A program made the position numbers and the translations under genes. A stretch of 64,000 nt of DNA from Bacteroidales bacterium (GTDB lineage Bacteria; Bacteroidota; Bacteroidia; Bacteroidales; F082), in NCBI GenBank assembly GCA_017649945.1, contig JAGCFU010000080.1:220-64219 (forward strand). The letters run 5' to 3'. Below, piece by piece: positions 7,526 to 46,047 of this stretch (positions are counted from its first letter, which is position 1; every line of letters starts with the position of its first letter). The notes beneath the pieces are model-generated. The model saw only the letters and a list, made by a program, of their open reading frames with translations, ran no database searches and was not told the DNA's origin.

Positions 7526-7536
7526 CTATCCGACTG

Positions 7537-7544: not shown

Positions 7545-7608
7545 CAACTTTTTTTCATTTATGTAATCTTTTTATAGAAAAAATCTTTTTTTTTTCAAAA
7601 AACATTTC

Positions 7609-7616: not shown

Positions 7617-7704
7617 CAGTCGCATTGTAAAACAAAAATATCATGTAGAAAAACAAACTGACATACATAAAAAAATAGCGTTTGTGCTATTCCTTGAAGC
7701 TCAA

Positions 7705-7793
7705 TTTCCACAAGTCTTAACTGACAACCAATCAAGGGACAGTTCACAAACGCCGTATTTAGGTACGGCGTGGAACAACTTGTTTGATTGGTG
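7705..7793 (+). promoter_or_regulatory. Structured 5' leader with nested helices and alternative pairing segments
   Basis: Helices are ccaatcaa (7728-7735) / ttgattgg (7784-7791) and acgccgta (7750-7757) / tacggcgt (7764-7771). The segments tttccac (7705-7711) and gcgtggaac (7768-7776) can compete with the terminator arms. Confidence 0.4.
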
Positions 7794-7794
7794 G

Positions 7795-7840
7795 GCGTGG
7801 AAACCCGAGCTTCGGCAAGTTGGTTTCCACGCTTTTTTTT
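7795..7840 (+). terminator. Intrinsic terminator inside the leader, 50 nt before the 7890 start codon
   Basis: Stem gcgtggaaacc / ggtttccacgc followed by eight T. Confidence 0.6.
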
Positions 7841-7889
7841 ATGTCTTTTTAGGAATAACTAATCAACATTAACTAATAATTATTTACAA

Positions 7890-8927: not shown

Positions 8928-8945
8928 TCCTTAAAAACAAGTGTT

Positions 8946-30873: not shown

Positions 30874-31455
30874 TTACAAAATTGATAAAATTATCTCTTT
30901 CCCGATTTCCATTTTTGAGAAAGCGAACATTCTTTTTCCTAAATCTTTTAATGAAGCCCCGATGTGATATACTTCATTGTCAATAATCATAAATCTGTCA
31001 TGAGATTTATTGAACTGCTCAATGTTTATTGGCTGATACTGGGAATTGTGCTTTTTTAAATCCAGTTTAAGATTTTCAGAAATATGAGCTGTGTAGATTG
31101 TAGCGGAAACGTTGTCTTCTCGTTTGTTTAGAATTTTTAGAACCGAATCATCAACATAATTATCAATTAGTATAATTTCGTTCTTTGCTTTTCTTACTAA
31201 ATCAGAGATGAAGTTGTAGGCATCAAATATTTGTCCATCAAGTCGAACTACCGAGAAATTCTCGGAGGTTGAATCGGAGTCAATTTCATGTTCTTCATAA
31301 ATGTTTTTTAGATGTAAACTTATATTGTCTGTTGAACAGTCAAACAATATGGCCATTTGTGTTTGTGTCAGCCACACTGTTTCATCAGAAACCTTAACTT
31401 CAAGTTTAACGTTACTACTCTCTGTTTTGTAAACAACAACATTGTGATTATCCAT
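30874..31455 (-). CDS. RhuM-like N-terminus fused to a C-terminal domain seen on Bacteroidales ORF6N-type proteins (R-M-associated DNA-binding protein)
   Basis: N-terminus VVVYKTESSNVKLEVKVSDETVWLTQTQMAILF...LHLKNIYEE. C-terminus LIDNYVDDSVLKIL...SHDRFMIIDNEVYHIGASLKDLGKRMFAFSKM. The gene is AT-rich. Confidence 0.55.
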   Translation of the reverse strand: MDNHNVVVYKTESSNVKLEVKVSDETVWLTQTQMAILFDCSTDNISLHLKNIYEEHEIDSDSTSENFSVVRLDGQIFDAYNFISDLVRKAKNEIILIDNYVDDSVLKILNKREDNVSATIYTAHISENLKLDLKKHNSQYQPINIEQFNKSHDRFMIIDNEVYHIGASLKDLGKRMFAFSKMEIGKEIILSIL

Positions 31456-31504
31456 TATTTACAATTTTAAAAGATTCCAAAAATAGCGTTGAATTCCTTG
31501 GTTG

Positions 31505-31512
31505 CAAAATTA
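31505..31512 (-). promoter_or_regulatory. -7 promoter box (TAATTTTG) for 30874..31455
   Basis: Matches TAnnTTTG about 50 nt upstream of the ATG at 31455. Confidence 0.45.
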
Positions 31513-31621
31513 AGTCGTAATTCCTTATGTGTCAAGGATTTTAGTGTTAAATTTTGTTAACAAAAGTTGCGGAATTTTGGAGGAAATCTTAAAAAATTTT
31601 AACAATTATTATGCCTTTATT

Positions 31622-31798
31622 GGCCCCCGCTGCAGCCGTCCTAAGGCGGTGATCCTCATGGCGGGGAGTGCTTTCTGCTGAAAGCAAACGACTGGGCGCC
31701 CCGTCTTGAGTATCATCCGCTTAGTCCGGCTTTTAGGCCCTCGCTGCCCCGCAATCGGGCCGGGCCCCCGCGCCGCGAAGCGAAGTGGGGGCGAAGCC
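31622..31798 (-). repeat. GC-rich structured repeat, left copy (inverted relative to 43855..44030)
   Basis: Its reverse complement aligns end to end with 43855..44030, roughly four-fifths identical by eye. Several differences are paired across predicted helices. Confidence 0.85.
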
Positions 31799-32027
31799 AT
31801 GATGGAATGTGCAAAAAATGCAAATTGCTTTTTAAACCAATCTCAAAACTCATCGTTTAAATAGAATCTAATGTCAATTTTTCATCTTATTATTAAAAAT
31901 ATGTTTTCTATATTTGTTTTATTGCCTGCTTTTCATATAATGGCAGAGGTGCTATAATTAACAAAATGCAAAATAATTACACTGATATTTTTTTTCTGAA
32001 AAAAGTTGAAAATTGAAAAAAAATAAT

Positions 32028-32035
32028 TAAATTTG
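32028..32035 (+). promoter_or_regulatory. -7 promoter box (TAAATTTG) for the island operon(s)
   Basis: Matches TAnnTTTG 32 nt upstream of the ATG at 32067. A second match (TATATTTG) lies at 31909..31916. Confidence 0.45.
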
Positions 32036-32066
32036 CAAATCAAGTATTTTACATAAATTATATAGG

Positions 32067-33410
32067 ATGAAAAGCACTAACAATAAGAGTTTTAACGAGT
32101 TATCTTTAAAAAAAGATAAAGAAATGGTGTTTGACATCCATCAAAAAGAAAAGGTTCATGCTAAAAAAAGTAAAAACATTACACACACTGTAATAGATTT
32201 GTTCGCTGGCTGCGGAGGTTTGTCGCTTGGTTTATATCAAGCCGGTTGGGAAGGTCTTTTTGCCATTGAAAAGAATGCTTTTGCTTTTGAAACGCTTAAG
32301 TTCAATTTGATCGATAACAAGAAGCACTTCCAATGGCCTGAATGGCTGCCTCAAACCGAGCATGACATCAATGAAGTGTTGGAGAAATATCCGAAACAAT
32401 TGAGAGCATTGCGGGGAAAGGTGGATTTGGTAGCTGGAGGGCCTCCGTGTCAGGGCTTTTCCATGGCTGGAAAGCGTGTTGAGGATGATGTGCGCAATCA
32501 GTTGGTGTTTTCGTACATTAAGTTTATTGACTTGGTACAGCCGAAAATGATTCTTTTCGAAAATGTGAAAGGTTTCACTTATGCTTTCGATAAAGGGAAA
32601 TCGGCTTCTTCCGAGAATGAACCTTATTCCCACAAAGTGATTCGTGGGTTGGGAGATTTGGGTTACAACGTGAAACCCCATGTGATTGATTTTTCAGAGT
32701 ATGGTGTCCCTCAACGTCGCAAGCGTTTTATCCTTGTTGGGATTCGAAAAGAACTGGGTGCTCCTGATGGTTTCGAGGATTTGTTGAAAGCCAATCGAGA
32801 TTCATTCTTGGCTCAAAAAGGTTTGAAGTCCATCAATACCTTGCAGGATGCCATTTCTGATTTGCTTCGTTCCAACGGAGAAGTTTCCTCTCCTGACCGC
32901 AAAGGTTTTTATTCTGGAATATACGGCAAGAAGAAACTGACAGCGTACCAAAAACTGATGCGGGGCGATTATCCCCAAATGCACGAAATAGCGGATAGCC
33001 ATAGTTTTGCAAAGCACAAACAGGAGAAAATTACTTGTTACAAACGATTGTTGGCTGAATATCCAAAACGTGGCAAACGAATTGATGGGGAAGCCCGCGA
33101 ACAATGGGGCATCAAACAACGGGGGATCACCATTTTGGATCCCAATGTGGTTTCGCCGACCATTACCGGCAGTCCGGATGACTATTTGCACTATTCCGAA
33201 CCACGCATCATGACGGTTCGCGAATGTGCCCGCATACAGTCGTTCCCTGATTGGTACGAGATTAAAAAGAAATACACTACCGGTGGCAAGATGCGCAAGT
33301 TGGAAGTGCCCCGTTACACCCAAATTGGTAACGCCATTCCGCCACTATTTGCGGAGTTGGCGGGGAAAGTTTTATTAAATATGCTACGATATGGAACAGA
33401 TGCAGTTTAA
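32067..33410 (+). CDS. DNA (cytosine-5)-methyltransferase
   Basis: Motifs I DLFAGCGGLSLG, IV GGPPCQGFS, VI ENV, VIII QRRKR, IX TVRECARIQSFPD and X GNAIPP. Confidence 0.9.
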   Translation: MKSTNNKSFNELSLKKDKEMVFDIHQKEKVHAKKSKNITHTVIDLFAGCGGLSLGLYQAGWEGLFAIEKNAFAFETLKFNLIDNKKHFQWPEWLPQTEHDINEVLEKYPKQLRALRGKVDLVAGGPPCQGFSMAGKRVEDDVRNQLVFSYIKFIDLVQPKMILFENVKGFTYAFDKGKSASSENEPYSHKVIRGLGDLGYNVKPHVIDFSEYGVPQRRKRFILVGIRKELGAPDGFEDLLKANRDSFLAQKGLKSINTLQDAISDLLRSNGEVSSPDRKGFYSGIYGKKKLTAYQKLMRGDYPQMHEIADSHSFAKHKQEKITCYKRLLAEYPKRGKRIDGEAREQWGIKQRGITILDPNVVSPTITGSPDDYLHYSEPRIMTVRECARIQSFPDWYEIKKKYTTGGKMRKLEVPRYTQIGNAIPPLFAELAGKVLLNMLRYGTDAV

Positions 33411-35664
33411 AATAAGTTCATTTTTAAAAGATCTTATTGGACGAGAATTGATAACTGATGAATTCGTGGCAGTTTTCGAATTGGTTAAGAATTCTTTTGA
33501 TGCACATGCAAAAAAAGTAAAAGTTATTTTTGAAAATCAATATGACCCTACAAACGCCAGAATCATTATTTGGGACAATGGACGAGGAATGGACAAATCA
33601 GATTTACAAAACAAATGGTTATTTGTTGCGCATTCTGATAAAAGGGATGGAACGGAAGACAAAGATTACAGAGATAAAATCCAACACAAACGCACTTTTG
33701 CCGGAGCTAAAGGTGTTGGTCGCTTCTCTTGTGATAGATTAGGAAGATATTTAAATCTTATCTCAATTAAAGACGCACCTAATGCTTTAATAGAGAATCT
33801 CAAGATAGATTGGACTTCTTTTGAACAAGACTCCAACAAGGAATTCATAGATATTAAAGTTGAACATAATACTTTATCAGCAACAAACTATGAAGATTTT
33901 CATCAAGGAACTATTTTAGAGATCTCGGGGCTGCGAGATATATGGGATAGAGATAGGATTAAGAAATTGAAAGTATCATTAGAAAAGCTTATTAATCCAA
34001 TTCAAGGGAATGATGTTGACGATTTTGCTATTGAGATTATTGCTGACGATGAGTTATTACAAGATCAGAAAGAAAAAGATGATAGAGACAAGGTTAATGG
34101 TGTTGTTCGAAATATTGTCTTTGAGCGTTTGGGATTAAAGACAACACAAATTAAAGTGAGTATTACAAATCATGGTGGAACAATCACAACAACATTAACA
34201 GACAGAGGCACAGAGATATATACTTTAACAGAACGCAATCCATATGACAAATTATATGATATAGATATTGTATTGTTTGTTTTAAATAGAGCTGGAAAAA
34301 TCAACTTCAAAAAAATAATGGGTGTTGATTCCGTTAAATACGGGTCTGTCTTTATTTACAAGAATGGTTTCCGCATATATCCTTTTGGAGAGGAAGGTGA
34401 TGACACCTTGCAAATAGACCGACGCAAGCAACAAGGTTTCTATCGTTATTTGGGAACCCGTGATTTATTGGGACGTATTGAGATTAATGGCGAACGTTCT
34501 GATTTAAGAGAAACCACTAGTCGAGACGGTGGATTTATTAAAAATGAATCATGGAATCAGTTAGTTGAGTTTTTCTATGACAAAGCTTTACGCCGTCTTG
34601 AAACTTATACTGTGGGCATCATTAAATGGGGTGATGAAAAGTTTGACAAGGAAACTGGTGAAATTATTCAACCAGAACTAAAGCCCGAAGACGTTAAAGA
34701 CAAAATATTGGACATTATTTCTAATCTGACAAAAGCCAAAGAGGTAATAGATGTTCAATATAATCAGGATTTTTTAAAAATCTATGAATCTAAACAAGAA
34801 AAAAGCGCCACTCAACTTGTGAAAAATCTCACCCGCATGGCTGAAGAGACAAATAATCCACAATTTGTCAAACAAGCGAAAGCTGTAGAGAAACAAGTTA
34901 GCGAGATGAGACAATCCATTGGCGAACTTGAACGGGATAATGCCACCAAAACTGAAGAGAATAAAAATATTAAAAAAACTGTATCGCAATTACAAACAGA
35001 AAATTTATTCTTGATATCGGATGTCACAAATGATACCAAAGAGTTTAAAAGTTTGCATCATCACATCACGCACACTTCTGATTTGATTGCTGAATATATT
35101 TCCATTGCTATTGAAGCATTAAGTAAAGGCGACAACAAACGCGTGAAAGAATCGTTGCAATACATAGAAATAGAGAATCAGAAAATTTTGACATTATCCA
35201 ATTTCGTAAGCAAAGCAAAATTTGATACGAAAACAACTAAAATAAACGATGACATTATCAGTTTTGTTTACGAATACATAAACAATCTATATGTAATTAC
35301 TCATAAGAAACTAATTGTCAATGTTGAAAAAGCTTCGTTCAAATTTGTCACAAGGTTTGTGCCAATTGAAATGATAATACTCATTGATAATTTGCTGAAC
35401 AACTCTGAAAAAGCCAAAGCTCAAAATGTTTCGATAAGCTGGGTACTTGAGGAAAGCACCTTGACAATGCATTATGCTGATGATGGGCACGGCATTAAGC
35501 AAGAAGTTTTGCCACATGTATTTGAATACCGTTTTTCCACTACTAACGGAGGTGGTTTAGGATTGTATTATGTGAAAGAAATAGTTAACAAGATGAAAGG
35601 CTCGGTCCAAATTGATAACAGCAAGTCTAAAGGTGTGGAGTTTATTATAACTTTGAAGAAATGA
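33391..35664 (+). CDS. Cytoplasmic dual-GHKL protein: MORC/HATPase_c_3-like N-terminal ATPase plus a C-terminal histidine-kinase-like module
   Basis: N-terminal Bergerat motifs are ELVKNSFDA, WDNGRGMD and GAKGVGRFS. A coiled coil leads to the His-rich segment SLHHHITHTSDLI (aa 555-567). C-terminal kinase boxes are IDNLLNNSEKA, DDGHGI, VFEYRFST and GGGLGLYYVKEIV. No TM segment is seen. The start overlaps the MTase stop by 20 nt. Confidence 0.75.
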   Translation: MEQMQFKISSFLKDLIGRELITDEFVAVFELVKNSFDAHAKKVKVIFENQYDPTNARIIIWDNGRGMDKSDLQNKWLFVAHSDKRDGTEDKDYRDKIQHKRTFAGAKGVGRFSCDRLGRYLNLISIKDAPNALIENLKIDWTSFEQDSNKEFIDIKVEHNTLSATNYEDFHQGTILEISGLRDIWDRDRIKKLKVSLEKLINPIQGNDVDDFAIEIIADDELLQDQKEKDDRDKVNGVVRNIVFERLGLKTTQIKVSITNHGGTITTTLTDRGTEIYTLTERNPYDKLYDIDIVLFVLNRAGKINFKKIMGVDSVKYGSVFIYKNGFRIYPFGEEGDDTLQIDRRKQQGFYRYLGTRDLLGRIEINGERSDLRETTSRDGGFIKNESWNQLVEFFYDKALRRLETYTVGIIKWGDEKFDKETGEIIQPELKPEDVKDKILDIISNLTKAKEVIDVQYNQDFLKIYESKQEKSATQLVKNLTRMAEETNNPQFVKQAKAVEKQVSEMRQSIGELERDNATKTEENKNIKKTVSQLQTENLFLISDVTNDTKEFKSLHHHITHTSDLIAEYISIAIEALSKGDNKRVKESLQYIEIENQKILTLSNFVSKAKFDTKTTKINDDIISFVYEYINNLYVITHKKLIVNVEKASFKFVTRFVPIEMIILIDNLLNNSEKAKAQNVSISWVLEESTLTMHYADDGHGIKQEVLPHVFEYRFSTTNGGGLGLYYVKEIVNKMKGSVQIDNSKSKGVEFIITLKK

Positions 35665-36608
35665 GAATAAAATATAAGATACTCTGGGTAGATGATCGCA
35701 AGGATGAGTTCGAAAGGTTGTCTTATGATAAACGGATTATTGAATATGTCAAGAATCTGTTTTTCGAACCGCACTTAACATTCTGTGAGAATGTCGAGGA
35801 AGCTAAAGACATAATTAGTCATAATCATTTTGATGTCATTTTTTCAGATTATAACATCAATGATGGATCTTCCGGAGAGCAAGGAGACGGATTTATTTCA
35901 TATATTCGTTCCAGAAATGTGAATACTGAGGTGCTGTTTTATTCTGCCATGAAGGAATTGCCCACTTTAAAATTAAATCGTATAGTCTTTTTCTCGTTGG
36001 CGGGTTTGCAAGATGGTTATCGCAAGTTGTTAGAACAAATGGAAGGGCTCATATATCTCACAACGGAAAAACTACATGATTTGACGGCTCTGCGTGGTCT
36101 TGTTATGGCAGAGGTGAGTGAACTGGATGTCTTAATGGAACAAATCATTTTAGCATATTTCAATTCTCCAGAGAGAATGCGTACATTCCATGACCACATC
36201 ACAGCGAATCGAGAAGAAACTTGGCATAAAATGCTAAATTCTAGTACTCAGTGCGATAAGCAATGTTTTCACATATGGCGTGAAAAAGATCTAACAGAGT
36301 ATGTCAGCAAATTAGATTCTTCACAAAAAGCGCGTGCCATTAACATTGTGCTTTCAGATATTGACTCTGCTCATGCTATTTGTACAGATAGCAAATTTTT
36401 CAAGAACTATGATGATTCTATCATTCTCAATCGGAATAATTTAGCTCACTGCATTAGCGAAAAAGATAAGAATGGAAATGAAATCTTAAAAACATGGAAA
36501 GGAGAGAAAATATACAATGATGAAGAATTCCGCATTATGAGAGCGAATATTATTAAATATCACAACATGTTTACAACATTATTGACTACATTAACCGAAT
36601 CCGAATAA
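35661..36608 (+). CDS. Receiver (REC) domain protein with a HEPN-like C-terminal domain
   Basis: REC features are ILWVDDRKD (acidic pocket), FDVIFSDYNI (putative phospho-Asp D63), VLFYSAMKELP and K98. The C-terminal ~180 aa are helical and carry RNNLAH (R258-H263), which matches HEPN Rx4-6H. There is no HTH. The ATG overlaps the upstream stop (ATGA). Confidence 0.6.
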   Translation: MRIKYKILWVDDRKDEFERLSYDKRIIEYVKNLFFEPHLTFCENVEEAKDIISHNHFDVIFSDYNINDGSSGEQGDGFISYIRSRNVNTEVLFYSAMKELPTLKLNRIVFFSLAGLQDGYRKLLEQMEGLIYLTTEKLHDLTALRGLVMAEVSELDVLMEQIILAYFNSPERMRTFHDHITANREETWHKMLNSSTQCDKQCFHIWREKDLTEYVSKLDSSQKARAINIVLSDIDSAHAICTDSKFFKNYDDSIILNRNNLAHCISEKDKNGNEILKTWKGEKIYNDEEFRIMRANIIKYHNMFTTLLTTLTESE

Positions 36609-36740
36609 AGTATGGTTATAACAATATAATAGATTTTACAGTAAAACGAATAAAAAAGATTATGCATCAATTATGCCTATAGAACATTGCCCAGACCGCG
36701 ATTACTTGGCATATCATAGAGATAGAATTTTTAAAGGGAT

Positions 36741-38378
36741 ATGAAACAAAACATTTTAATGAAGAAAGAACAGACATTAAAACAAAAGGTAGCCGATTTA
36801 ATCGCACGGCATATGATTTGTTATTCCGAACAAGATTGTGCACAGATTCTTGTTGGACTTAATGTTATTTCCTCGTTTAATTTGAATATAGACCATCCAC
36901 AAGCATCGATTAACCTTAATCTTTTCCAAGAATCTTTGGCGAAAATCAATGAAAAAGAATTGAGGAGGCGTGATGAAGGTGTATACTATACCCCAAAAGA
37001 CGCAACAGAATATGTTGTTGCTAACACATACCTTAATTACGTTTGTCCAGACAACGTTCAAGTACATCCCGTTGATAAATGTTTGCAGATACTAACCCAA
37101 ATCAATAGTAGTAAGTTGGTTTGCGCTAAAGTTTTTGACCCAACATGTGGAACAGCCGAATTCTTGTTAAGTGCAATAAATCTAAAGTTGCAGATAATTG
37201 ATTGTGATTCCGATGACGCAATATTAAATCTTGTGTCAACAATATATGGCAACGATATTGCAGAAGAATCCATCTTTTTATCCAAGGTGAGATTGTTCTT
37301 TGCAGTTGTTAAGTTTCTTCAGGACAAGAATAATTCTGTAAGATTAGCAAAGATTTTAAATAAGAACTTCACCTCATTGGATTATATAATTAACCATAAC
37401 ATATCGCCAAAATATGATATAATTGTGGGTAATCCGCCATATGTAGAATACCGCAAATTACCCGTAAAGCCAACCACAAACTATGGAAACACATACGCCG
37501 ATGTTTTGCTAAATTCTATTAATGCAGCAAAGCAAAATGGTGCCTTGGGTTTCGTGATTCCCATATCATTTGTATCCACCGGACGCATGAAAGCTATTCG
37601 TGAGTATTCATATTCAAAGTTAAGCAAAATGTTTTTGCTTAACTTTGCGGATCGTCCTGATTGCTTATTTGATGGCGTTCACCAAAAACTTACAATATTC
37701 TTCGGAATCAAAGGCAGAAATAAATGCTGTGTCTACTCATCCAGTTACTACCATTGGTATAGCGAGGAACGAGATTATTTGCTCAGCAACGCAAGTGTTT
37801 TACCCGTTATTCCTTATGAAAAATACATTCCTAAAATCGGTAATGATTTTGAGCGGAGTATATTTGATAAAATAATGAGTGCTAAAGGGCTGACCTTAGC
37901 GGACATCACATCAGACACAAAAAGCAATACTTTGCTATATCTTAACATGCGTGGATGTTTTTGGATGAAAGCATTCTCTTTTAATCCGGGGTCAAATGAA
38001 TATAAGCAATTCAAAAGCCCGAAGGAAATGCAACCGTATATCCTTGCCATCTTAAATTCCAATCTCTATTTCCTTTATTGGACAATAGTTTCTGATTGTT
38101 GGCATATAACTGGAAAGGAAATATCCGAATTTATCATACCTATTAAAGACGTCAACTTCAAAGCTTTTAGAAATATATACAACAATATTGAAAAAAAATT
38201 AGAGGAAACCAAGAAGTATATCGGTAGCAAACAAACGGCTTATGAGTACAAACATAAAGATTGTAAGCCAGAGATAGACGCTGTTGATGATGCTTTGAAA
38301 GGTATATATAATCTCTCAGATGATGAAGTTGAATATTTAAGAAACTATAAAGTCAAATATAGAACTAGTAATGGCTAA
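36741..38378 (+). CDS. N6-adenine DNA methyltransferase (gamma class, Eco57I/TaqI-like)
   Basis: Motif X GVYYTPKD, motif I VFDPTCGTAEFLL and motif IV VGNPPY. Confidence 0.85.
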   Translation: MKQNILMKKEQTLKQKVADLIARHMICYSEQDCAQILVGLNVISSFNLNIDHPQASINLNLFQESLAKINEKELRRRDEGVYYTPKDATEYVVANTYLNYVCPDNVQVHPVDKCLQILTQINSSKLVCAKVFDPTCGTAEFLLSAINLKLQIIDCDSDDAILNLVSTIYGNDIAEESIFLSKVRLFFAVVKFLQDKNNSVRLAKILNKNFTSLDYIINHNISPKYDIIVGNPPYVEYRKLPVKPTTNYGNTYADVLLNSINAAKQNGALGFVIPISFVSTGRMKAIREYSYSKLSKMFLLNFADRPDCLFDGVHQKLTIFFGIKGRNKCCVYSSSYYHWYSEERDYLLSNASVLPVIPYEKYIPKIGNDFERSIFDKIMSAKGLTLADITSDTKSNTLLYLNMRGCFWMKAFSFNPGSNEYKQFKSPKEMQPYILAILNSNLYFLYWTIVSDCWHITGKEISEFIIPIKDVNFKAFRNIYNNIEKKLEETKKYIGSKQTAYEYKHKDCKPEIDAVDDALKGIYNLSDDEVEYLRNYKVKYRTSNG

Positions 38379-39498
38379 ATATAACGTCATAGATTTGTTT
38401 TCAGGCTGTGGAGGTTTTTCTGTAGGTTTTGAAAGAGCGGGCTATCGTATCATTAAGGCGGTAGAATACGACAAAACAATTGCCGTTTCTTACTCGCATA
38501 ATCATAAGGCAACAATTATGTATGCAGAAGATATAGGAAAGATAGACAATGAAGATCATTTTACATGCGGAGAATCAGATGTAATCATTGGGGGCCCCCC
38601 ATGTCAAGGTTTCTCTATGGCAGGTGCGAGAATTCGTGAAAAAAATGCATTTATGAACGACCCGCGAAACTTTCTTTTTCGTCACTATGTGAACGTTGTC
38701 AAAATAGTTCGTCCAAAAGTATTCTTGTTGGAAAATGTTAAGGGAATCTTGTCAAAAGACAAAGGCGCCATATTCAAAGAGATAGTCAGTGCTTTTAGCA
38801 ACCCTGATAATTTTGAAGGGGATAGATATTATTTGCACTACAAAGTTTGCAAGGCTGTAGAATATGGAGTACCTCAACAACGAGAACGTGTTGTTGTGAT
38901 AGGCGTGCTCAATCACGATTTTAATATAGACGAAGTATTTGAGTTTGCCCGGAGAAATATCCTTAAAAAAGATAAGCACTTCTTTGATGCTGTATCATTG
39001 CGAGATGCAATTTCTGATTTAGGTCACCCGACAATTGATGGCATTACGGAATTACAACCTTGTCAATCCAGGTATCAAGAATTCTTGCGTGAGGGGTGCG
39101 ATAAAACTTCAAATCACATAGCATCTAAACATAATGCAATTGCTATTAACCGGATGCAACATATTGAAGTGGGACAAAACTGGGAAGTATTAAATGAAGA
39201 TATCCACTCTGTGCATAGCGGTGCATATGGTCGATTGGCATGGGACAAGCCAACTATGACAATAACAACTCGTTTTGATACACCAGCTGGAGGAAGATTT
39301 ATTCATCCGGTAGAAAATAGGACTCTAACGCCGCGCGAAGCTGCCCGCATACAGTCTTTCCCTGACAGTTTTGAGTTCTTAGGAAATAAAACAATTGTTT
39401 GTAGACAAATAGGAAATGCGGTACCACCGAAAATGGCATACTTTTTAGCAAATGTAGTAAAACATATATTTTATGAATATGGGAAAACTAAGCGATGA
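38371..39498 (+). CDS. DNA (cytosine-5)-methyltransferase (second copy, different TRD)
   Basis: Motifs DLFSGCGGFSVG, GGPPCQGFS, ENV, QQRER, TPREAARIQSFPD and GNAVPP. It overlaps the upstream gene by 8 nt. Confidence 0.9.
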   Translation: MAKYNVIDLFSGCGGFSVGFERAGYRIIKAVEYDKTIAVSYSHNHKATIMYAEDIGKIDNEDHFTCGESDVIIGGPPCQGFSMAGARIREKNAFMNDPRNFLFRHYVNVVKIVRPKVFLLENVKGILSKDKGAIFKEIVSAFSNPDNFEGDRYYLHYKVCKAVEYGVPQQRERVVVIGVLNHDFNIDEVFEFARRNILKKDKHFFDAVSLRDAISDLGHPTIDGITELQPCQSRYQEFLREGCDKTSNHIASKHNAIAINRMQHIEVGQNWEVLNEDIHSVHSGAYGRLAWDKPTMTITTRFDTPAGGRFIHPVENRTLTPREAARIQSFPDSFEFLGNKTIVCRQIGNAVPPKMAYFLANVVKHIFYEYGKTKR

Positions 39499-41257
39499 AA
39501 AACTCGCCAAATTGAAAACCTTGGATAGTCAAGGAGGATTTTGGTATATCACAAAGCAAAATCTAGTATTTCGAGATTTATGCTTTATGGCAAAAATTCT
39601 TGAGGCATGGGATGACCGTAAGGAGGAGAATTATGAAAGTTTCTTTAATAAGCACAAGATTCTTCCTGATTTTGGTGCTTTTGATCCCCTTATTGCTCAT
39701 CGTGCTACAAAAAATTGTGAATACATCGGATTGACTGTGCCTTCTGAAAAATACAGTGCACAAAATTTGACTCCGTTCTATTTCGCGCTAAAGAAGTTGT
39801 GTGGAGGCGATTTTAACCAATTGTCTTCTTATCCTCAAATTATTGATAAACAATTGGAACGGATGTTTATTGATTCGCGTACAAATAAAACATATACTAC
39901 TAATTTTCAAATTTGCCCATTTATGTTTTTGTTCAAAGTTTTGCTCCTTATAGGAGATATTACAAAATCGTATAAAATTTCGACAGCAGAATTTAAGCTG
40001 TTTGTTGCAACTGCACAGAGTTGGAATGAATACTTTGAAGTTGTAGAATCTATTTTAAGATATAGAACCGACGCGGATTTCCAAGCACAATGCAATAAGA
40101 ACAACACAAAAGTTAGCGATGTTCGTTACAATATATTAGCTCAAAATCATTCTCAGCTTGCAGTTACAAGTAGCGATATAGCTATATTGGAAAATGAAGT
40201 TAGAAATGTACGTAGAAAAGTAGCAGAATATGAATTAAGTGAAAGAGTTCAATCTGCAGAAGAAATTTTTACAGCGGGTTCTTTTGTTGAAAAAACATTC
40301 CAGAAAATATATTACGGTGCTCCTGGAACCGGCAAAAGCCACGAAGTAAAAAAGCAAACTGAAGAATTGTTGGATAGTGGCGAAGAAAGAGACTTGCCCA
40401 ATGTTTTCCGCACCACTTTCCATCCTGATACGGATTATGCTTCTTTCGTGGGATGTTATAAGCCTACCATGAAACCGACATCCAAAGAGGAAAAGACTCT
40501 CACCGGCAAAGATGAAGAGATAGTATATGAATTTGTTCCGCAGGTCTTTACAGATGCGTACGTTTATGCGTATAATAATTCCGACCAACCGACCTACTTG
40601 GTTATAGAGGAAATCAACCGTGGTAACTGTGCACAGATATTTGGCGACCTGTTCCAGCTATTGGACAGAAACGGAGGCGTTTCCGAATATAAAATCAAAG
40701 CAGACAAAGACTTGGCGCTATACCTCCGTGACAAATTGGATGCAGACTCCCAAGGCATCCAAGACGGAAAACTATGCTTGCCTGCCAACCTGCATATCCT
40801 TGCCACCATGAACACCTCCGACCAGAGTCTGTTCCCTATGGACAGCGCCTTCAAACGCCGTTGGGAATGGGAATACGTGCCCATCAATTATGACACAACC
40901 ATCAAATCGGGCGAGTTTGAAGTTACCATCGGTGACAAGTCCTATTCATGGGTTGTATTTATCAAGCAAGTGAACGAGAAGATCTTCGACCTTACCCAAA
41001 GCGAAGACAAACAAATGGGTAACTTTTTCATCAAACAATCCATTGATGAAAAAGGGTTCAAGAGCAAAGTGATGTTCTACCTTTGGTACGAAGTGCTACG
41101 TGACGAAACGGAAAACAACAAATACTTCTTCTACAAGAAAACTATCGTTGACGGCAAAGAAGTGTCAAGCAAATTCACATTTAAAGACCTATTCGGAGAT
41201 AAAGCGACGGAGACATTGCAGCAGTTCATGGATTACTTGAAGGTTGACCCTAAATGA
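39473..41257 (+). CDS. McrB-like AAA+ GTPase restriction subunit (LlaJI R1-like) with an unassigned ~270-aa N-terminal domain
   Basis: Walker A GAPGTGKSH, then FHPDTDYASFVG, VIEEINRGN, ATMNTSDQS (McrB NTAD-like) and AFKRRWEW. Confidence 0.85.
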   Translation: MNMGKLSDEKLAKLKTLDSQGGFWYITKQNLVFRDLCFMAKILEAWDDRKEENYESFFNKHKILPDFGAFDPLIAHRATKNCEYIGLTVPSEKYSAQNLTPFYFALKKLCGGDFNQLSSYPQIIDKQLERMFIDSRTNKTYTTNFQICPFMFLFKVLLLIGDITKSYKISTAEFKLFVATAQSWNEYFEVVESILRYRTDADFQAQCNKNNTKVSDVRYNILAQNHSQLAVTSSDIAILENEVRNVRRKVAEYELSERVQSAEEIFTAGSFVEKTFQKIYYGAPGTGKSHEVKKQTEELLDSGEERDLPNVFRTTFHPDTDYASFVGCYKPTMKPTSKEEKTLTGKDEEIVYEFVPQVFTDAYVYAYNNSDQPTYLVIEEINRGNCAQIFGDLFQLLDRNGGVSEYKIKADKDLALYLRDKLDADSQGIQDGKLCLPANLHILATMNTSDQSLFPMDSAFKRRWEWEYVPINYDTTIKSGEFEVTIGDKSYSWVVFIKQVNEKIFDLTQSEDKQMGNFFIKQSIDEKGFKSKVMFYLWYEVLRDETENNKYFFYKKTIVDGKEVSSKFTFKDLFGDKATETLQQFMDYLKVDPK

Positions 41258-43332
41258 AAATACTCATTGAGCAATACGGCTACGACAAGGGCAGGTTGAG
41301 TTCCATACTCGACCCACACTATTTCACTGAACTGCGTGACGGGAAAGCCAAGATACCCTATGTGGGTTATTTCCTGTCGCACAAGATTCCGGACATGGTG
41401 TTTATCCTGCCGAAAGTATTCATCATCGAAGGCAAAGCCTTTGGTGAATACGATCCGGAAGAGATTATCGACTTCGAGCAACTCAAGCCGGAGCACAAAG
41501 CCAATGTGTTCAGCCTTTCGGTATGGATATATCGCGCCATCAAACTCTATTTCCAACACAAAGACAAGATAGGAGAGGAATCGGAGATATTGCAGAACGT
41601 GGTTTCTCACCAAGGTCCGAGAAGCGAGACAATGATAGATATTGTGCTTTCTCTGCTGAAGTTTGACAAAGAGCACAAGAACCTGTTTGCCTATATCACC
41701 CGCCTCAAGCACTCCGGACAAAACAAAATCCATTGGCAGAAAACAATCTCCCGGACACAGGCACTCATCCAAAACGGTGTACCTATTTACCTCCAACCGC
41801 ACACCAAACAGAAAGACATTAACTTCGATGAAGAGCTGATTGTACTGTTTTACTCAGTACTGAACTATCTCGCTCAGGAATTCAAGTTCAATGTGCGTCC
41901 GGCATTTGGGTACGACTTACTCAAACCCGAGACCATCCAATCCATGATAGACAGTGGGAAAGGCGTTCATGTGCTCCGTCAAAACCGCCGCAAGTACTTC
42001 ACGGACGAGATGGTACAGTTGTGGAACCTACTCTTCACCTTCTTCGAGCAATCCCAATATGTCCAAAGCAAAGATAATGACGACGAACAAGCTATGCTGG
42101 TTCGCGAGTTCAACCTTGTCTTTGAAGATATGATTGACTCACTCATCGGCGATAGTGATATATCAGGAGGACTGAAAGAGCAAAAAGATGGTAAAATCAT
42201 CGACCATATCTACCGCGATAATGCACTGATAGAAGATAAGAAACAAATCTATTTCATTGGTGACAGCAAATATTACAAGGATGACAACGACATCGGTCCG
42301 AATTCTATCTACAAGCAGTTCACATACGCCAAGAACGTCATCCAGTACAATATTGATTTCTTCAACAGCAGGCCTCAAGAGTTTGAGGCGGAGAACCTGC
42401 AATATCGGGATAACACTACCGAAGGCTACAACATCACCCCGAACTTCTTTATTCGAGGTCACCTGCAAGCCGGGCAACTGAATGACTACAGCAATGCTAA
42501 TTTGAAATTGGAGAAGATGAATGATGGTAAGAGCCATAGGATTTCGTACCATTTTGAGAATCGGCTCTTTGACCGTGACACGCTGATTTTGCAAACGTAT
42601 AGCATTAATTTCCTGTTTGTGCTGGCTTGTTATGTGCAAGGGGCAGGCGAGCACACACAAGAAATCAGAAGTATATTCCGTGAAAATATCAAGAAGGTTC
42701 TTCAATTGCAATATGGTTTCTTTGCCATCAAGCCGAGAGTTCATGACGAGACAGAGCAGTTCTTGCATGACAATTTTCAACAGGTGCTTGGCAAAGTATT
42801 TGCACCGTATGGTGGTTCGACCAATTGCATGACTTTAGCTTTAGATAATGATGCTGATAATACGGAAACACTTGCGCTGATAGATAAGTATTTTTACAGG
42901 AAACCTATTCCAAATAATCAACTGGATGTAAAACCGGATACATTGTTTGACACTGACGAGCAGACGATTATGCATGCTGTGGAACTTTCGGTGGATATGC
43001 ATGATAAATGTGTCATTACGGCACTTGTCAGAAAAGATGACAAGAGTTTTGACAAATTTAATATCGGAGGAGCTAAAGAATATGTCATGGAGTCGATTCC
43101 GGCTGTTAGTTTATGGAGCATCAAATACTTAATGCCGATGGCCTCATATGATTTTATTGGATATTATGAGGTGACGGACATAAAGTTTAATCCAATGACA
43201 AAAAGATTGCGGTTCATGTTGGGGCAGTTCTTCCCGTTGGGCGATTTACCGGTTAACGTGGCTGGGAAAATGAGGCACGGTGAATTGATTAACCTTGAAT
43301 ACGTACAAAAATTATATAACAAGGAAATATAA
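41254..43332 (+). CDS. LlaJI/McrC-like restriction endonuclease subunit
   Basis: 692 aa. The ATGA overlap with the McrB-like gene suggests translational coupling. The PD-(D/E)xK-like block is IIDHIY...(x)...YFIGDSKYYKD (D317, D337-S-K339). Confidence 0.65.
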   Translation: MKILIEQYGYDKGRLSSILDPHYFTELRDGKAKIPYVGYFLSHKIPDMVFILPKVFIIEGKAFGEYDPEEIIDFEQLKPEHKANVFSLSVWIYRAIKLYFQHKDKIGEESEILQNVVSHQGPRSETMIDIVLSLLKFDKEHKNLFAYITRLKHSGQNKIHWQKTISRTQALIQNGVPIYLQPHTKQKDINFDEELIVLFYSVLNYLAQEFKFNVRPAFGYDLLKPETIQSMIDSGKGVHVLRQNRRKYFTDEMVQLWNLLFTFFEQSQYVQSKDNDDEQAMLVREFNLVFEDMIDSLIGDSDISGGLKEQKDGKIIDHIYRDNALIEDKKQIYFIGDSKYYKDDNDIGPNSIYKQFTYAKNVIQYNIDFFNSRPQEFEAENLQYRDNTTEGYNITPNFFIRGHLQAGQLNDYSNANLKLEKMNDGKSHRISYHFENRLFDRDTLILQTYSINFLFVLACYVQGAGEHTQEIRSIFRENIKKVLQLQYGFFAIKPRVHDETEQFLHDNFQQVLGKVFAPYGGSTNCMTLALDNDADNTETLALIDKYFYRKPIPNNQLDVKPDTLFDTDEQTIMHAVELSVDMHDKCVITALVRKDDKSFDKFNIGGAKEYVMESIPAVSLWSIKYLMPMASYDFIGYYEVTDIKFNPMTKRLRFMLGQFFPLGDLPVNVAGKMRHGELINLEYVQKLYNKEI

Positions 43333-43847
43333 TGACCGACCACTTCACCCCAATCCAACGGCACCTTGTGATGTCACACATCCGCAGCCGTAACACTAAA
43401 CCCGAGCTGAAGGTGCGCAAATGGCTTTGGTCTCATGGCTATCGCTATCGTCTTAACGTAAAAGGAGTTCCTGGCAAGCCAGACATCGTAATGCGTCGTT
43501 ATCGCACTGCAATCTTTGTTAATGGTTGCTTCTGGCATGGTCATGAGGGATGTGAGAAGTTCAAGATGCCGAAAACAAATGTCGAGTTTTGGGAGGCGAA
43601 AATACGGAGAAATAGAGAACGAGACTGTCAAAACTATCAGATTTTAAAGGAAAACGGATGGCAAGTACTTGTGCTTTGGGAGTGCGAGCTTACAAAGAAG
43701 TCGTTTGAAGCAACTATGCAGAAAGTGGAAGTGATGCTGCATGATTATTGCTTGAAGACTATAAGTCCCAAGGTTAAAGAATATATTAGAGTGGATGAAG
43801 ATGCCATTCAGATGGCAGCTGAAGCAGAAGCTGATTATGGAGATTAA
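43332..43847 (+). CDS. vsr: Very short patch repair endonuclease
   Basis: Contains TKPELKVRKWLWSHGYRYRLN...PGKPDIVMRRYRTAIFVNGCFWHGH, the diagnostic Vsr core. Confidence 0.9.
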   Translation: MTDHFTPIQRHLVMSHIRSRNTKPELKVRKWLWSHGYRYRLNVKGVPGKPDIVMRRYRTAIFVNGCFWHGHEGCEKFKMPKTNVEFWEAKIRRNRERDCQNYQILKENGWQVLVLWECELTKKSFEATMQKVEVMLHDYCLKTISPKVKEYIRVDEDAIQMAAEAEADYGD

Positions 43848-43854
43848 CTCTCTT

Positions 43855-44030
43855 GGCTTCGCCCCACGTCGCTTCGCGGTGCGGGGGCTCGGCCCGAATC
43901 GCGGGGCAGCGATGGCCAAAGAGCCAGGCTAAGGCGCTGATTCTCAAGTGGGGCGCCCGGTCGTTTGTTTTCGTAAGAAAACACTACCCACGCTGAGAAT
44001 CACAGCCTTAGACCGGCTGCAGCGGGGGCC
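43855..44030 (+). repeat. GC-rich structured repeat, right copy
   Basis: Begins 8 nt after the vsr stop and aligns with the reverse complement of 31622..31798. Confidence 0.85.
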
Positions 44031-44054
44031 GATTATTCGGGCCTTGATTTTTTG

Positions 44055-44082
44055 GATACTTTTTTATCAAGAAAAAAGTATC
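44055..44082. repeat. A/T palindrome GATACTTTTTT-ATCAA-GAAAAAAGTATC, copy 1
   Basis: Near-perfect 11-bp arms. It lies 30 nt upstream of the -7 box at 44112. The twin is at 44759..44786. Confidence 0.6.
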
Positions 44083-44111
44083 ATACAACCGCCTGTTAAG
44101 GCCAAAATTCC

Positions 44112-44119
44112 TATATTTG
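44112..44119 (+). promoter_or_regulatory. -7 promoter box (TATATTTG)
   Basis: Matches TAnnTTTG. The listed ORF start at 44117 lies inside it, so the real start is taken as 44159. Confidence 0.45.
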
Positions 44120-44158
44120 CAAAACATTTCTCATGAAGTGCACAATGACATCGTTACC

Positions 44159-44605
44159 ATGGAACAAACCTATTCCAACTACACCAACCGCATCCTGAAT
44201 CTCCGCCAGGCGAAAATCCATGGCGAGGTGATAGTCGCAAAGCCTGTTCTGCTGCTCGCACTGATTGATGGCATAGGGCAGGGGATATTCAAAGAAAACC
44301 GTTTCGTGCTTAACGAGTGGCTCGAAGCCCGCTACCTGAAGCTGATGGTGGAAAACACCCGTCATTCGCAATTCGACAAGCCTGCCGATATAGCCAATCC
44401 TTTCTGGCATCTCGCCACCGACGGCTTCTGGCATCTGAATGGCAAAGATGTGCTTGAGATGAAAACCACACCATCAAGAAAATGGCTCAAAGAGAATGTT
44501 AACTACGCCTATTTTGATGAAGACCTATGGCTCCTGTTACAAAACCAGCCATGGAGAGAAAAACTGCGCAACTTTATCGTAGAACAAAAACTTACCAATT
44601 TATAG
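44159..44605 (+). CDS. Stand-alone domain resembling the N-terminal DNA-reader domain of HNH-type type IV restriction enzymes (ScoMcrA SBD-like); no nuclease domain
   Basis: The pattern AKPVLLLALIDGIGQG...NEWLEARYLKLM...NPFWHLATDGFWHL recalls KP(L/I)LLLA...PF(W/Y)HL..DGFW.L N-termini of such enzymes. This is motif-level recall only. Confidence 0.35.
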   Translation: MEQTYSNYTNRILNLRQAKIHGEVIVAKPVLLLALIDGIGQGIFKENRFVLNEWLEARYLKLMVENTRHSQFDKPADIANPFWHLATDGFWHLNGKDVLEMKTTPSRKWLKENVNYAYFDEDLWLLLQNQPWREKLRNFIVEQKLTNL

Positions 44606-44758
44606 ATGTGGCTTTGCCCCATATGGTTTACAGCGTTGGCCCGCGTCATACAGCGGTCAGAGCTTTGTATGGCGCTTGACTTTTTAGTTTTACTGATTTT
44701 GCTTTGTCTCAGCATAGCTCAAGTAAACTTGGCTCTGCATTCGACATTCGCAAAATTG

Positions 44759-44786
44759 GTTACTTTTTTGTCAAGAAAAAAGTAAC
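44759..44786. repeat. A/T palindrome GTTACTTTTTT-GTCAA-GAAAAAAGTAAC, copy 2
   Basis: Has the same 24-nt core as copy 1 with a compensating A:T to T:A swap in the outer stem. It lies 44 nt upstream of the -7 box at 44830. Confidence 0.6.
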
Positions 44787-44829
44787 AAGATAATATAAAA
44801 TAAACCTCTGAACTTTCAAAAATTTTTCG

Positions 44830-44837
44830 TACCTTTG
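44830..44837 (+). promoter_or_regulatory. -7 promoter box (TACCTTTG) for the Fic gene
   Basis: Matches TAnnTTTG 25 nt upstream of the ATG at 44862. Confidence 0.45.
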
Positions 44838-44861
44838 CAAAGACAACATTTAGCATTTATA

Positions 44862-46046
44862 ATGTCTGACAATCATCCATATCTGAACTTCGATGAGTAC
44901 ATCCGGCAAGGGGAGCCGTCGCAAAAAGAGAAGGCTCTGAACTGGGAGACTGCTATTGGCTTGCAGGCCGTAGACGGACTTCGTGTGTCGGATTATCTGC
45001 GAGAGACCGCACAAAAGCACATCGAAGGGGAGATATCGTCAGATGATGTAAAACGGCGCATCAGAGAGTATTATCAAACCAAAACCAAACGCGAACCGGA
45101 CGACGATGAGCACCAGGAAGCGGATAGCGTGTCGAGCAACATCCAGGAAATACTGGCGACAAACACTCTCGATTTTTCAGTCAGAGGCTATATGGCCTTA
45201 CATCGAAAAATTTTTGACGGTGTTTTCAAACATGCTGGCCAACTGCGTAAATGTGACATCTCCAAAAAGGAATGGGTGCTTGAATGGGATACAGTCGATT
45301 ATCTGTTTTGGCAAGATTTGCACCGCGCTTTGGAATACGATATCGCAAAAGAACGCGAATTCAGCTACAAAGGCATCTCTAAGGATGATCTGATAAAGCA
45401 TGTCGCCAGATTTACTTCTGATCTTTGGCAAATCCATGCTTTCGGCGAAGGCAACACCCGAACAACTGCGGTTTTCATTATCCAGTATCTGCGGTCGTTG
45501 GGTTTTGAAGTGACTAACGATATGTTTGCCAAGCATTCTTGGTATTTTCGCAACGCTCTCGTTCGTGCTAATTACAAAAGCGCGGTGAAAGGCATTGATT
45601 ATTCTCCAATTTATTTGGAAAGATTCTTCCGCAACCTGCTTCTCGGCGAGCAATGGGATATGCGGAACCGCTATCTGCATATTCATCCTACAGTAGAATG
45701 GAGAATACAGCCAAATTTGGCAGACCCCACAAGTATCCCCACAAGTAAGGAACAAACACCCATCAAGCACACATCAAGCACCCATCAAGTTGTGAACAAG
45801 TTTCATACAAAGAATCAGAATATAATAGATCTGATAAAAATTGTAGGGGATGAGGGAATCTCAGTTAAAAATATGATGGTAAGGATTGGGTTAAAAGATC
45901 GTGTGAACTTTATGAATCTTTATCTGAATCCAGCCATTGCCGAAGGTTATATTCGAATGTTATATCCAGATAAACCACACCATCCTCGCCAGAAATACCT
46001 CCTCACAGTGAAAGGATTGTCGCTTTACAAAGAAATTACAAGATAA
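44862..46046 (+). CDS. Fic/DOC-family protein with an N-terminal VbhA-like segment and a C-terminal wHTH-like region
   Basis: The Fic motif variant HAFGEGNTRTTA lies at 45435..45470. The canonical form is HxFx(D/E)GNGRxxR, so G is replaced by T and the last R by A. The start is moved to ATG 44862 because the listed start is a TTG inside the promoter box. Confidence 0.75.
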   Translation: MSDNHPYLNFDEYIRQGEPSQKEKALNWETAIGLQAVDGLRVSDYLRETAQKHIEGEISSDDVKRRIREYYQTKTKREPDDDEHQEADSVSSNIQEILATNTLDFSVRGYMALHRKIFDGVFKHAGQLRKCDISKKEWVLEWDTVDYLFWQDLHRALEYDIAKEREFSYKGISKDDLIKHVARFTSDLWQIHAFGEGNTRTTAVFIIQYLRSLGFEVTNDMFAKHSWYFRNALVRANYKSAVKGIDYSPIYLERFFRNLLLGEQWDMRNRYLHIHPTVEWRIQPNLADPTSIPTSKEQTPIKHTSSTHQVVNKFHTKNQNIIDLIKIVGDEGISVKNMMVRIGLKDRVNFMNLYLNPAIAEGYIRMLYPDKPHHPRQKYLLTVKGLSLYKEITR

Positions 46047-46047
46047 A

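Follow-up and report, generated by a model that had tools for sequence, protein, structure and literature searches.

The window analysed here, a stretch of 64,000 nt from the Bacteroidales contig JAGCFU010000080.1, contains an AT-rich restriction-modification island bracketed by two GC-rich arms that lie in inverted orientation and point outward. The cargo between them, 32067..43847 (+), is a single co-oriented operon-like block coding for eight proteins (Table 1). The two arms are old, diverged paralogues of a structured, polar intergenic element of ~255 nt, carried by a clade mostly from the ruminant gut; the element is uncatalogued and the pattern apparently undescribed. Its copies form a family, evolve with preservation of the structure, are polar and stand at the boundaries of accessory, overwhelmingly defence, cassettes; in all inverted pairs the 3′ end of the element points away from the cargo. 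A copy is called "tail" when the nearest gene on its 5′ side is co-oriented with it and "head" when that gene is divergent; 40 copies with intact 5′ end and enough flank were classifiable, 20 as tail and 20 as head. Other loci and contigs are cited by their L numbers.

A repeat search of the window gave three collinear inverted segments that make up the two arms; identity between the arms was 82.2% over 185 nt (BLASTN), with few 1-nt indels (MAFFT), which confirmed the first-pass annotation of inverted repeats of ~177 nt, ~80% identical and alignable over the full length. As annotated before, the arms are oriented with their GGCTTCGCC ends toward the island and their GCGGGGGCC ends away from it; likewise, the right arm starts at 43855, 8 nt past the end of the vsr open reading frame (ORF) at 43847. 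The length of 177 nt proved too short, since ~75 nt more belong to the element on its 3′ side (right copy, 43852-44108). A 16-mer and an 18-mer conserved motif were found in the 64-kb window only in the two arms; chance expectation 0.11 and 0.06, respectively. Coding potential of the arms was considered and rejected: the similar-frame ORFs (63 aa, 31609-31800(-); 62 aa, 43948-44136(+)) have their frame broken by indels between the copies.

Base composition (GC) was as follows: island 0.380 vs flanks 0.464 and 0.468; left arm 0.678, the top 177-nt stretch in the window; right arm 0.648, rank 3, the coding stretch 5454-5630 ranking between the arms. The island is thus more AT-rich than its flanks, as annotated, with the qualification that only its left two thirds is strongly so (31.8-40 kb, 0.359; 40-43.9 kb, 0.424), and the description of the repeats as the most GC-rich sequence of the window holds for the left arm and not for the right one. 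A second AT-rich stretch, window 7000-12000 (GC 0.34-0.40), carries a 1545-aa ORF (8946-13583) and is flanked neither by the element nor by any long inverted repeat; therefore not every low-GC region of the genome uses the element. The annotated lack of integrase, transposase and tRNA was borne out: no tRNA was found in the 64-kb window, and no integrase or transposase among the island proteins or in the ~10-kb flanks as annotated (Pfam) on identical metagenome contigs. An island anchored at a tRNA or an integrase was accordingly rejected, neither anchor being found.

Inversion of the whole island by its arms, in the manner of a phase-variation or shufflon-like switch, had also been suggested at first pass. 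The arms are inverted and the cargo operons are met in either orientation relative to the flanks across genomes, but opposite orientations occur only where the cargo differs. The longest run of identical bases between the arms is 17 nt, at ~80% identity with indels; the left and right lineages stay distinct across species; the long contigs L026, L031 and L029, which belong to the same population and cover parts of the island, run collinear with the window, as does the related L127, no contig spanning both arms. Short identical runs, missing homogenisation and collinear contigs together make inversion very unlikely indeed.

Table 1: Features of the locus (positions in the window; a slash separates the left and right members of an inverted pair; P and H denote helices and hairpins described in the text).
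Feature	Position	Strand	Remark
Left arm	31619-31798	(-)	GC-rich core of the left copy
Right arm	43855-44033	(+)	
Inverted segment 1	31619-31702 / 43950-44033		84 nt, 82%
Inverted segment 2	31700-31769 / 43884-43953		70 nt, 74%
Inverted segment 3	31755-31790 / 43862-43897		36 nt, 92%
Left copy	31547..31801	(-)	head position
Left copy, P0 5′ strand GGCCCGATT	31753-31761	(-)	
Right copy	43852..44108	(+)	full length; tail position, 7 nt past the last base of the vsr stop codon
Right copy, invariant core GGCCCGAATCGCGGGGCAGCG	43891-43911	(+)	
Right copy, optional long hairpin P3	43929-44011	(+)	
Right copy, P0 3′ strand ATTCGGGCC	44035-44043	(+)	
Right copy, U-rich tract TTGATTTTTT	44044-44053	(+)	
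Right copy, hairpin H2	44054-44082	(+)	
Right copy, hairpin H3	44091-44102	(+)	
Degenerate third copy	44610..44787	(+)	behind the ScoMcrA-SBD gene
-7 box TATATTTG	31909..31916	(+)	reads into the cargo; 115 nt from the 5′ end of the left copy
-7 box TATATTTG	44112..44119	(+)	9 nt past H3; reads outward into the next gene
Dcm	32067-33410	(+)	
Double GHKL/MORC-like ATPase	33391-35664	(+)	
REC-like protein	35661-36608	(+)	
Eco57I-type N6-methyltransferase	36741-38378	(+)	
Second Dcm	38371-39498	(+)	
McrB-like AAA+ LlaJI.R1-type protein	39473-41257	(+)	
LlaJI.R2-like protein	41254-43332	(+)	
Vsr	43332-43847	(+)	
Truncated RhuM-like protein	30874..31455	(-)	193 aa; matches PADLOC candidate family PDC-S05
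Leader/promoter of the RhuM-like PDC-S05 gene	31456..31546	(-)	-7 box TAATTTTG at 31505-31512
ScoMcrA-type DNA-SBD gene	44138-44605	(+)	
Fic/DOC gene	about 44835-46046	(+)	

Element family and structure

Copies were gathered by motif scans (one-genome-per-species contigs, JGI metagenomes) and then by BLAST and nhmmer; 48 full-length matches, corresponding to 47 distinct sequences, were obtained together with short forms and remnants. All true copies lay in metagenome-assembled genomes (MAGs) of uncultured Bacteroidales or in metagenome contigs. The MAG sources are mostly ruminant (water buffalo rumen, goat omasum, red deer, RUG and Tb.RUG bins); two carrier MAGs (Bact_22, UBA1173) are of unstated source. 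Three motif scans of IMG/VR (2.9 M viral contigs) gave chance matches or none and no true copy, and blastn against the PLSDB plasmids gave no copy; a phage or plasmid origin was rejected on these searches.

Identity is 90-99% between copies that occupy one locus in different genomes and 67-85% between paralogues of a genome or pair; in L088 and L099 the element matches that of the window at 94%, vs 79-86% for the adjoining coding DNA. These values indicate that the family is old, positionally stable and under purifying selection, and by this comparison the element is not a recently spreading repeat. At most five copies were seen per MAG, the MAGs being incomplete and repeats breaking assemblies. 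Four of the 12 contigs of the source population (L028, L030, L036, L037) end at or within elements or the leader, which fits assembly breaks due to the repeat or to cargo that differs among co-existing strains.

Besides its GC-rich core, the full element includes a U-rich tract and two further hairpins. The order of parts in the alignments, from the 5′ side, is: GGCTTCGCC, hairpin P2, the nearly invariant GGCCCGAATCGCGGGGCAGCG, an optional hairpin P3 of ~90 nt, GGCTGCAGCGGGGGCC, CGATTATTCGGGCC, the U-rich TTGATCTTTT, the AU-rich hairpin H2 (11 bp, loop RTCAAG) and the small hairpin H3 (GCCYG...RGGC); a long-range helix P0 closes the GC-rich core and is followed by the conserved tract UUGAUCUUUU. 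The 21-nt core is near-invariant among paralogues that are otherwise only 67-85% identical. In the short forms (L140, L118, L137, L151, L158) P3 is missing exactly between two GCAGCG repeats; 5′-only remnants and solo 3′ modules also occur. In the left copy of the window all sequence 3′ of GGGGGCCAATAA is gone, a deletion of ~70 nt relative to the orthologue in L100 that removes the P0 3′ strand, the U-tract, H2 and H3. The degenerate third copy retains a decayed core-like stretch (GGCTTTGCCCC...ACAGCGG...), CTTGACTTTTT and an intact H2-type hairpin (44758-44786). It also has an insertion of ~75 nt (TAGTTTYACTGATTTTGCTTTGTCTCAGCATAGCTCAAG...) between U-tract and H2 (44681-44757), which recurs in L040 (5950-6025) and L081 (6458-6535), i.e., at three different loci with 87-91% mutual identity, and which is a candidate for a small mobile insertion or for an additional RNA module.

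The two ends of the element (GGCTTCGCC... and ...GCCYGNNNRGGC) do not form an inverted repeat with each other, and no target-site duplication was observed at the boundaries of pairs. Both observations bear on the proposal that the copies are non-autonomous repeats resembling MITEs (miniature inverted-repeat transposable elements), whose inverted pairs would serve as terminal repeats for composite transposons that lack a transposase, in the manner of integron mobilisation units. Outward inverted pairs around cargo at several core loci (valS, atpB, rplQ, hydF) would agree with it, as would the modular forms (short, 5′-only, solo 3′, 75-nt insertion), which recall the mosaic BIME, BOX and Correia elements. 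However, besides the ends just described, the copy number is apparently low (≤5 seen per MAG), the difference between paralogues and orthologues leaves no room for a recent burst, and no transposase was found in any locus examined; moreover, both arms are retained at one locus from species to species and the cargo differs, contrary to what is expected of a unit moving whole. A MITE-like origin is therefore judged improbable.

The pairing test was performed with a hand-drawn structure on the alignment, with slid partners and 500 shuffles as controls; pairing was found in 91.4% of cells vs 30-48% with slid partners; both-sided changes occurred in 13 pairs, 81 cells vs 24 in shuffles, and 0/500 shuffles reached 81. 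P0: GGCCCGAAU/AUUCGGGCC in 21 distinct copies, doubly compensated GGCCCGAUU/AAUCGGGCC in 10, mismatched in 6. H2: the 11 bp are maintained via T-A, C-G, G-C and A-T swaps across 23 variants, and the loop covaries with upstream CUUGAY. P2: variants GCCCCC/GGGGGC, CUCCCAC/GUGGGAG and CCUCCC/GGGAGG. The sense strand gave a more stable fold than the antisense strand in 34/38 copies, conserved U-G pairs were present on the sense strand only, and the loops GGGGCGCCCAGUCGUUUG and CGCGGGGCAGCG are conserved. P0 is a covariation-supported helix of 9 bp that encloses ~140 nt and is followed by UUGAUCUUUU, which may indicate an intrinsic terminator; a consensus scan does not call it.

RNAalifold was run on the whole alignment and on the 3′ hairpins; the registers were inconsistent in C/G runs and near gaps, and P2, P0 and H2 were for that reason analysed sequence by sequence. 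The RNAalifold helix GCUUCGCGG/UCGCGGGGC shows one-sided C/U changes opposite an invariant G and competes with P2; it was set aside as tentative only. Several helices are pseudoknotted or mutually exclusive. No Rfam 15 family was matched at gathering score in the window or in 13 related loci; at E ≤ 10, only chance microRNA and SmY matches were obtained over the right copy.

Cargo at orthologous and unrelated loci

Left and right copies orthologous to those of the window flank or adjoin at least seven different cargos in different genomes, and the flanks of the locus are syntenic among related genomes. Cargo classes at this locus: Type I, II and III restriction-modification, AbiH, DndC-like, Mrr and GmrSD-like. 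The cargos are: Type I HsdR/S/M, an AAA_13 protein and AbiH (L100 and L053, one Red-deer scaffold); Mrr and a tyrosine recombinase that lies inside the cargo (L059 / L088; Phage_integrase Pfam-confirmed in L059 only); AbiH (L099); a Type I system and an OLD-family ATPase (L116); a DndC-like PAPS reductase (L131); Dcm and SNF2 (L132); T5orf172 and HsdM (L134); variants of the island of the window (L127, L118). At unrelated loci, inverted pairs enclose a UvrD-type helicase (L040, beside valS), two unknown genes (L048, beside atpB), Type III Res/Mod (L115), a KAP NTPase and an MmeI-like enzyme (L123), or NERD and HNH proteins (L145); at L139, cas12a occurs with remnant copies.

Adjacent copies were counted as 9 pairs (-,+), 0 (+,-) and 6 tandem; the GC of the enclosed DNA is 0.28-0.41. 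Orthologous copies 90-99% identical that bracket different systems lend strong support to the first-pass view that the repeats mark a cassette boundary or insertion hotspot for defence cargo, and the search for inverted pairs around variable cargo in related Bacteroidales, which had been recommended with it, found 9/9 inverted pairs outward, at several loci. An empty site, with both flanks joined by a single copy, was not present among the fetched loci; L140 and L160 have reshuffled small cassettes.

Tandem arrays of the order gene-element-gene-element were found at L081, L127, L116 and L136, and also at L040; "empty" leader-element units are present in L116. Small genes (an 88-aa gene, RhuM-like, SBD) sit in different slots in different genomes. 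Similarity between genomes with differing cargo ends within a few bases of the 5′ end of the element; for many cargos, the cargo-specific DNA starts 0-42 nt (tail) or 8-35 nt (head) from this end.

Such sharp 5′ boundaries could mean that the element serves a recombinase encoded elsewhere in the genome as its recombination site (of attC/Vibrio cholerae repeat (VCR), rAID or pdif-like type), with cassettes excised or inserted at the 5′ boundary. The arrays at L081, L127 and L040, the empty units of L116, the change of slots by small genes and the near-invariance of the 21-nt core across diverged paralogues agree with such a site. Structure-preserving covariation is typical of attC as well, which is recognised as folded single-stranded DNA, and H2, whose 11-bp arms are separated by an asymmetric 6-bp spacer, is like a recombinase core site. 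On the other hand, no recombinase lies beside any array, the one confirmed Phage_integrase (L059) being inside cargo; pairs are predominantly inverted, unlike the co-oriented arrays of integrons and rAID; the paralogues, old and unhomogenised, include no near-identical copies at different loci that would suggest recent movement; an attC-type GTTRRRY core is lacking; and the H2 arms vary between copies of one genome, which counts against recognition by one sequence-specific protein. A site of this kind is the main alternative to the reading favoured below, though considered unlikely.

Doubtful as well is the wider proposal that the element is the cassette-boundary site of an unrecognised integron-like capture system, with a recombinase in trans or an RNA-templated mechanism, that assembles and shuffles defence cassettes. 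In ruminant-gut Bacteroidales, such a system would handle single genes, cas12a and restriction-modification operons as large as 12 kb, and its built-in divergent promoter and outward terminators would make each slot a ready insulated expression bay; should the recombination-site reading be true, a new system of gene capture would have been found outside the integron paradigm.

The truncated RhuM-like gene next to the island behaves as a cassette, with an element copy on each side in L127. Its leader contains the -7 box TAATTTTG and two or three operator-like palindromes of the form TGTTAA...TTAACA (TGTTAAAAATTTTTAACA, TTGTTAACAAAATTTAACA), and related cassettes in L081, L100, L116, L127 and L131 have this leader in common with it. 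The leader is located downstream of the element and upstream of small cassette genes (window 31456-31618(-); L081 4410-4546 and 5421-5590; L100 3715-3865; L127 9612-9700); the shared leader suggests one repressor over several cassettes. On the right side, the SBD and Fic/DOC cassettes form an indel (44139-46047): they are absent from the orthologous L088, L124 and L170, where the leader of the right copy runs directly into the gene at 46048, the breakpoint lying at or beside the start codon.

Within the island, the genes at 33391-36608 code for a 757-aa double GHKL ATPase (HATPase_c_3, HATPase_c, MORC-like) and its 315-aa REC-like partner, between two Dcm genes; neither protein had a PADLOC match, and the pair may be an undescribed methylation-linked defence module. 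A longer variant of the ATPase (855 aa) is encoded in L032, a contig of the source population with identical Vsr and a mosaic island (L032 1-6960 vs window 32187-40313). L032 is 98.5% identical to the window right of ~40313, inside the McrB-like gene, and 74% identical or unalignable left of it, with different Dcm, ATPase and AAA_5 genes in the left part. The mosaic suggests swapping of specificity inside the island, and from the position of the breakpoint within the McrB-like gene it follows that the cargo also diversifies by internal recombination.

Observations at other loci were as follows. The cas12a gene of L139 codes for 1262 aa with all five Cpf1 Pfam domains; its outward-facing remnants, 2353-2403(-) and 6777-6844(+), have only the 5′ domain of the element left; no CRISPR-repeat family was reported there by Rfam. 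At L136, two tandem copies flank a tRNA-like gene of ~95 nt (~5505-5605(+)) that has a TATCTTTG promoter of its own, a terminal stem of 13 bp and a GGGTTCGACTCCCAC T-arm; it was called by neither ARAGORN nor Rfam and could be a Y-RNA-like or other tRNA-like RNA. Genes of ~396 aa beside short forms, suspected as Bacteroides integrases, were identified as the core genes HydF and HydG.

Promoters and a proposed role in termination and insulation

Tail copies follow stop codons closely: 14/20 begin ≤42 nt (0-42) after a co-oriented stop codon. Upstream of the head copies that lie ≤~360 nt from a cargo gene, no TAnnTTTG (the Bacteroidetes -7 box) was found in the sense direction. A -7 box reading toward the cargo, 50-67 nt from the 5′ end, was found in 11/40 copies (9 head and 2 tail-classed, L081 and L116), four of which have a conserved block ATTATTTTT...GAAAAAAT...TATTTTTGCAT in common; the box of the window that corresponds to these is at 31909-31916. 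Past the opposite end, an outward -7 box lies 9-21 nt from H3 at many loci (window, L053, L059, L063, L136, L158, L168, L170) and also upstream of the core operon hydF-hydG. Simple sigma-70 and terminator scans are uninformative for Bacteroidetes promoters. One and the same orthologous copy is tail in some genomes and head in others, as determined by cargo orientation alone; the elements thus form fixed landmarks, and it is the cargo that changes.

These promoter positions also bear on the proposal that the element is an RNA with a function of its own (a regulatory small RNA, an antitoxin-like or sensor RNA for defence, or a guide-type RNA), to which the position at cassette edges would be secondary. 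The complex conserved fold with optional P3, the loops GGGGCGCCCAGUCGUUUG and CGCGGGGCAGCG, the sense wobble pairs and the 3′ U-tract would suit it, as would the tight association with defence genes. No conserved promoter lies upstream, however, true head copies being without a sense -7 box and tail copies starting a few nt past a stop codon; the element accompanies mechanistically unrelated cargo and also a tRNA-like gene and the core gene hydF; no variable guide-like segment is apparent. The probability of an independent RNA is regarded as small.

The reading favoured here, held tentatively and at slightly less than an even chance, is that the element is an outward-facing terminator/insulator that marks the boundaries of cassettes in a defence-exchange hotspot. 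Transcription insulation had been one of the options of the first-pass annotation; judged from sequence it is plausible and is the mechanism preferred, because of the sense-strand bias, the U-tract behind a covarying GC helix, the position after stop codons and the promoters abutting on both sides. The element would act on the sense transcript as a strong one-way terminator/insulator and as a 3′-end cap: a tail copy behind the last stop codon would end the cargo transcript, and a head copy would halt antisense or divergent read-out from the AT-rich foreign DNA into neighbour genes. Since promoters lie directly on both sides of the element, each cassette would be an insulated expression unit, and since the elements stay fixed and conserved while the cargo turns over, they would form the boundaries of a recombinase-free exchange hotspot, like the immigration control region (ICR) of E. 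coli; the cargo would be replaced probably through homologous recombination in the conserved elements and flanks.

Several observations weigh against a terminator/insulator. The tight junction of stop codon and element across many unrelated cargos fits precise recombination also. The left copy of the window itself is without U-tract and hairpins. An element of 255 nt with an invariant 21-mer exceeds what termination alone requires. The element escapes a simple terminator scan, as the local stem is bulged and P0 spans ~140 nt. Single-sequence folds of the short forms are no stabler than those of shuffles (z -0.3 to -0.9) and mutually exclusive helices compete, so the exact fold is not settled. 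Head copies have no driving promoter and are nevertheless conserved as well as tail copies; a role as RNA can therefore be only conditional there, and their conservation could reflect a role at the DNA level.

How defence islands assemble and stay exchangeable is an open question, and most described chromosomal hotspots either have core-gene boundaries only or are integrase-dependent. With a dedicated polar structured repeat at many defence cassettes, at several loci of one clade, the boundaries become predictable from sequence, and genes between outward-facing copies are candidate defence genes, a search handle for rumen metagenomes. The arrangement of terminators, promoter, cargo and terminators, if it works as a natural insulated expression slot, could serve Bacteroides engineering.

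Comparison with known systems

The attC sites of integrons are imperfect palindromes of 57-141 nt with R/L core sites GTTRRRY and variable sequence, in arrays headed by intI and attI/Pc. The element resembles attC/VCR in being a structured repeat with compensatory helices right after the stop codon of a cassette, and the loci resemble integron arrays in the gene-repeat-gene-repeat order, the accessory or defence cargo and a promoter directed into the cargo from the edge of the array. Unlike attC, the element is ~255 nt long and strongly conserved in sequence; it contains a 21-mer that hardly varies, and its 5′ domain is not palindromic. Inspection of the alignments revealed no GTTRRRY boundary motif, and the U-tract and extra hairpins of the element suggest a role at the RNA level. 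No intI or other integrase was present in the island, in the ~10-kb flanks or beside arrays at other loci, the L059 integrase lying inside cargo, and, in contrast to integron arrays, 9 outward inverted vs 6 tandem pairs were counted, around multi-gene operons.

The REP/BIME, ERIC, BOX and Correia repeats are dispersed in tens to hundreds of copies, and MITEs have terminal inverted repeats and target duplications; Correia elements have promoters that point outward and also show terminator activity, and mRNA upstream of REP elements is stabilised by them. The element shares with these repeats the GC-rich or palindromic, structured, mosaic make-up and the location in 3′ untranslated or intergenic DNA; it differs in being apparently low-copy, old and positionally conserved, at cassette edges and with fixed outward polarity. 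The pdif sites of Acinetobacter plasmids are 28-bp XerC/XerD sites in strictly alternating orientation. As in pdif modules, which include toxin-antitoxin and resistance genes and pass between replicons, gene modules lie here between oppositely oriented sites without a recombinase of their own; unlike in pdif, no dif-like site is evident and tandem co-oriented copies are also present.

No Bacteroidales defence-cassette repeat was found described in the literature, the search returning only rAID and general reviews. The rAID-1 arrays of Bacteroidales have conserved repetitive intergenic sequences and were called reminiscent of integrons by their authors (Ross et al., 10.1101/471110; PMC12247911); they consist of an adjacent XerD-family recombinase followed by ≥2 co-oriented short low-GC genes, which are immunity genes (PMC12247911). 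Host order, low-GC accessory arrays and conserved intergenic repeats are shared with rAID-1, and the small co-oriented cassettes of L081 are similar; rAID-like short-gene arrays were seen only at L081 and in the flanks of the window. By the published definition of rAID-1, the present loci differ in that no recombinase is adjacent, the pairs are inverted and the cargo consists mostly of long defence operons.

In the ICR of E. coli, alternative restriction-modification and other defence systems replace each other without a mobilising gene, and the region is bounded only by the core genes yjiA/yjiN (PMC12707154). The window locus is like the ICR in its conserved boundaries, in the alternative defence systems across genomes and in the lack of a resident mobilising gene; it differs from the ICR in that its boundaries are a dedicated structured polar repeat, which recurs at several independent hotspots in the same genomes. 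The locus is thus a repeat-punctuated accessory-gene hotspot, built on a not-yet-catalogued RNA or DNA element.

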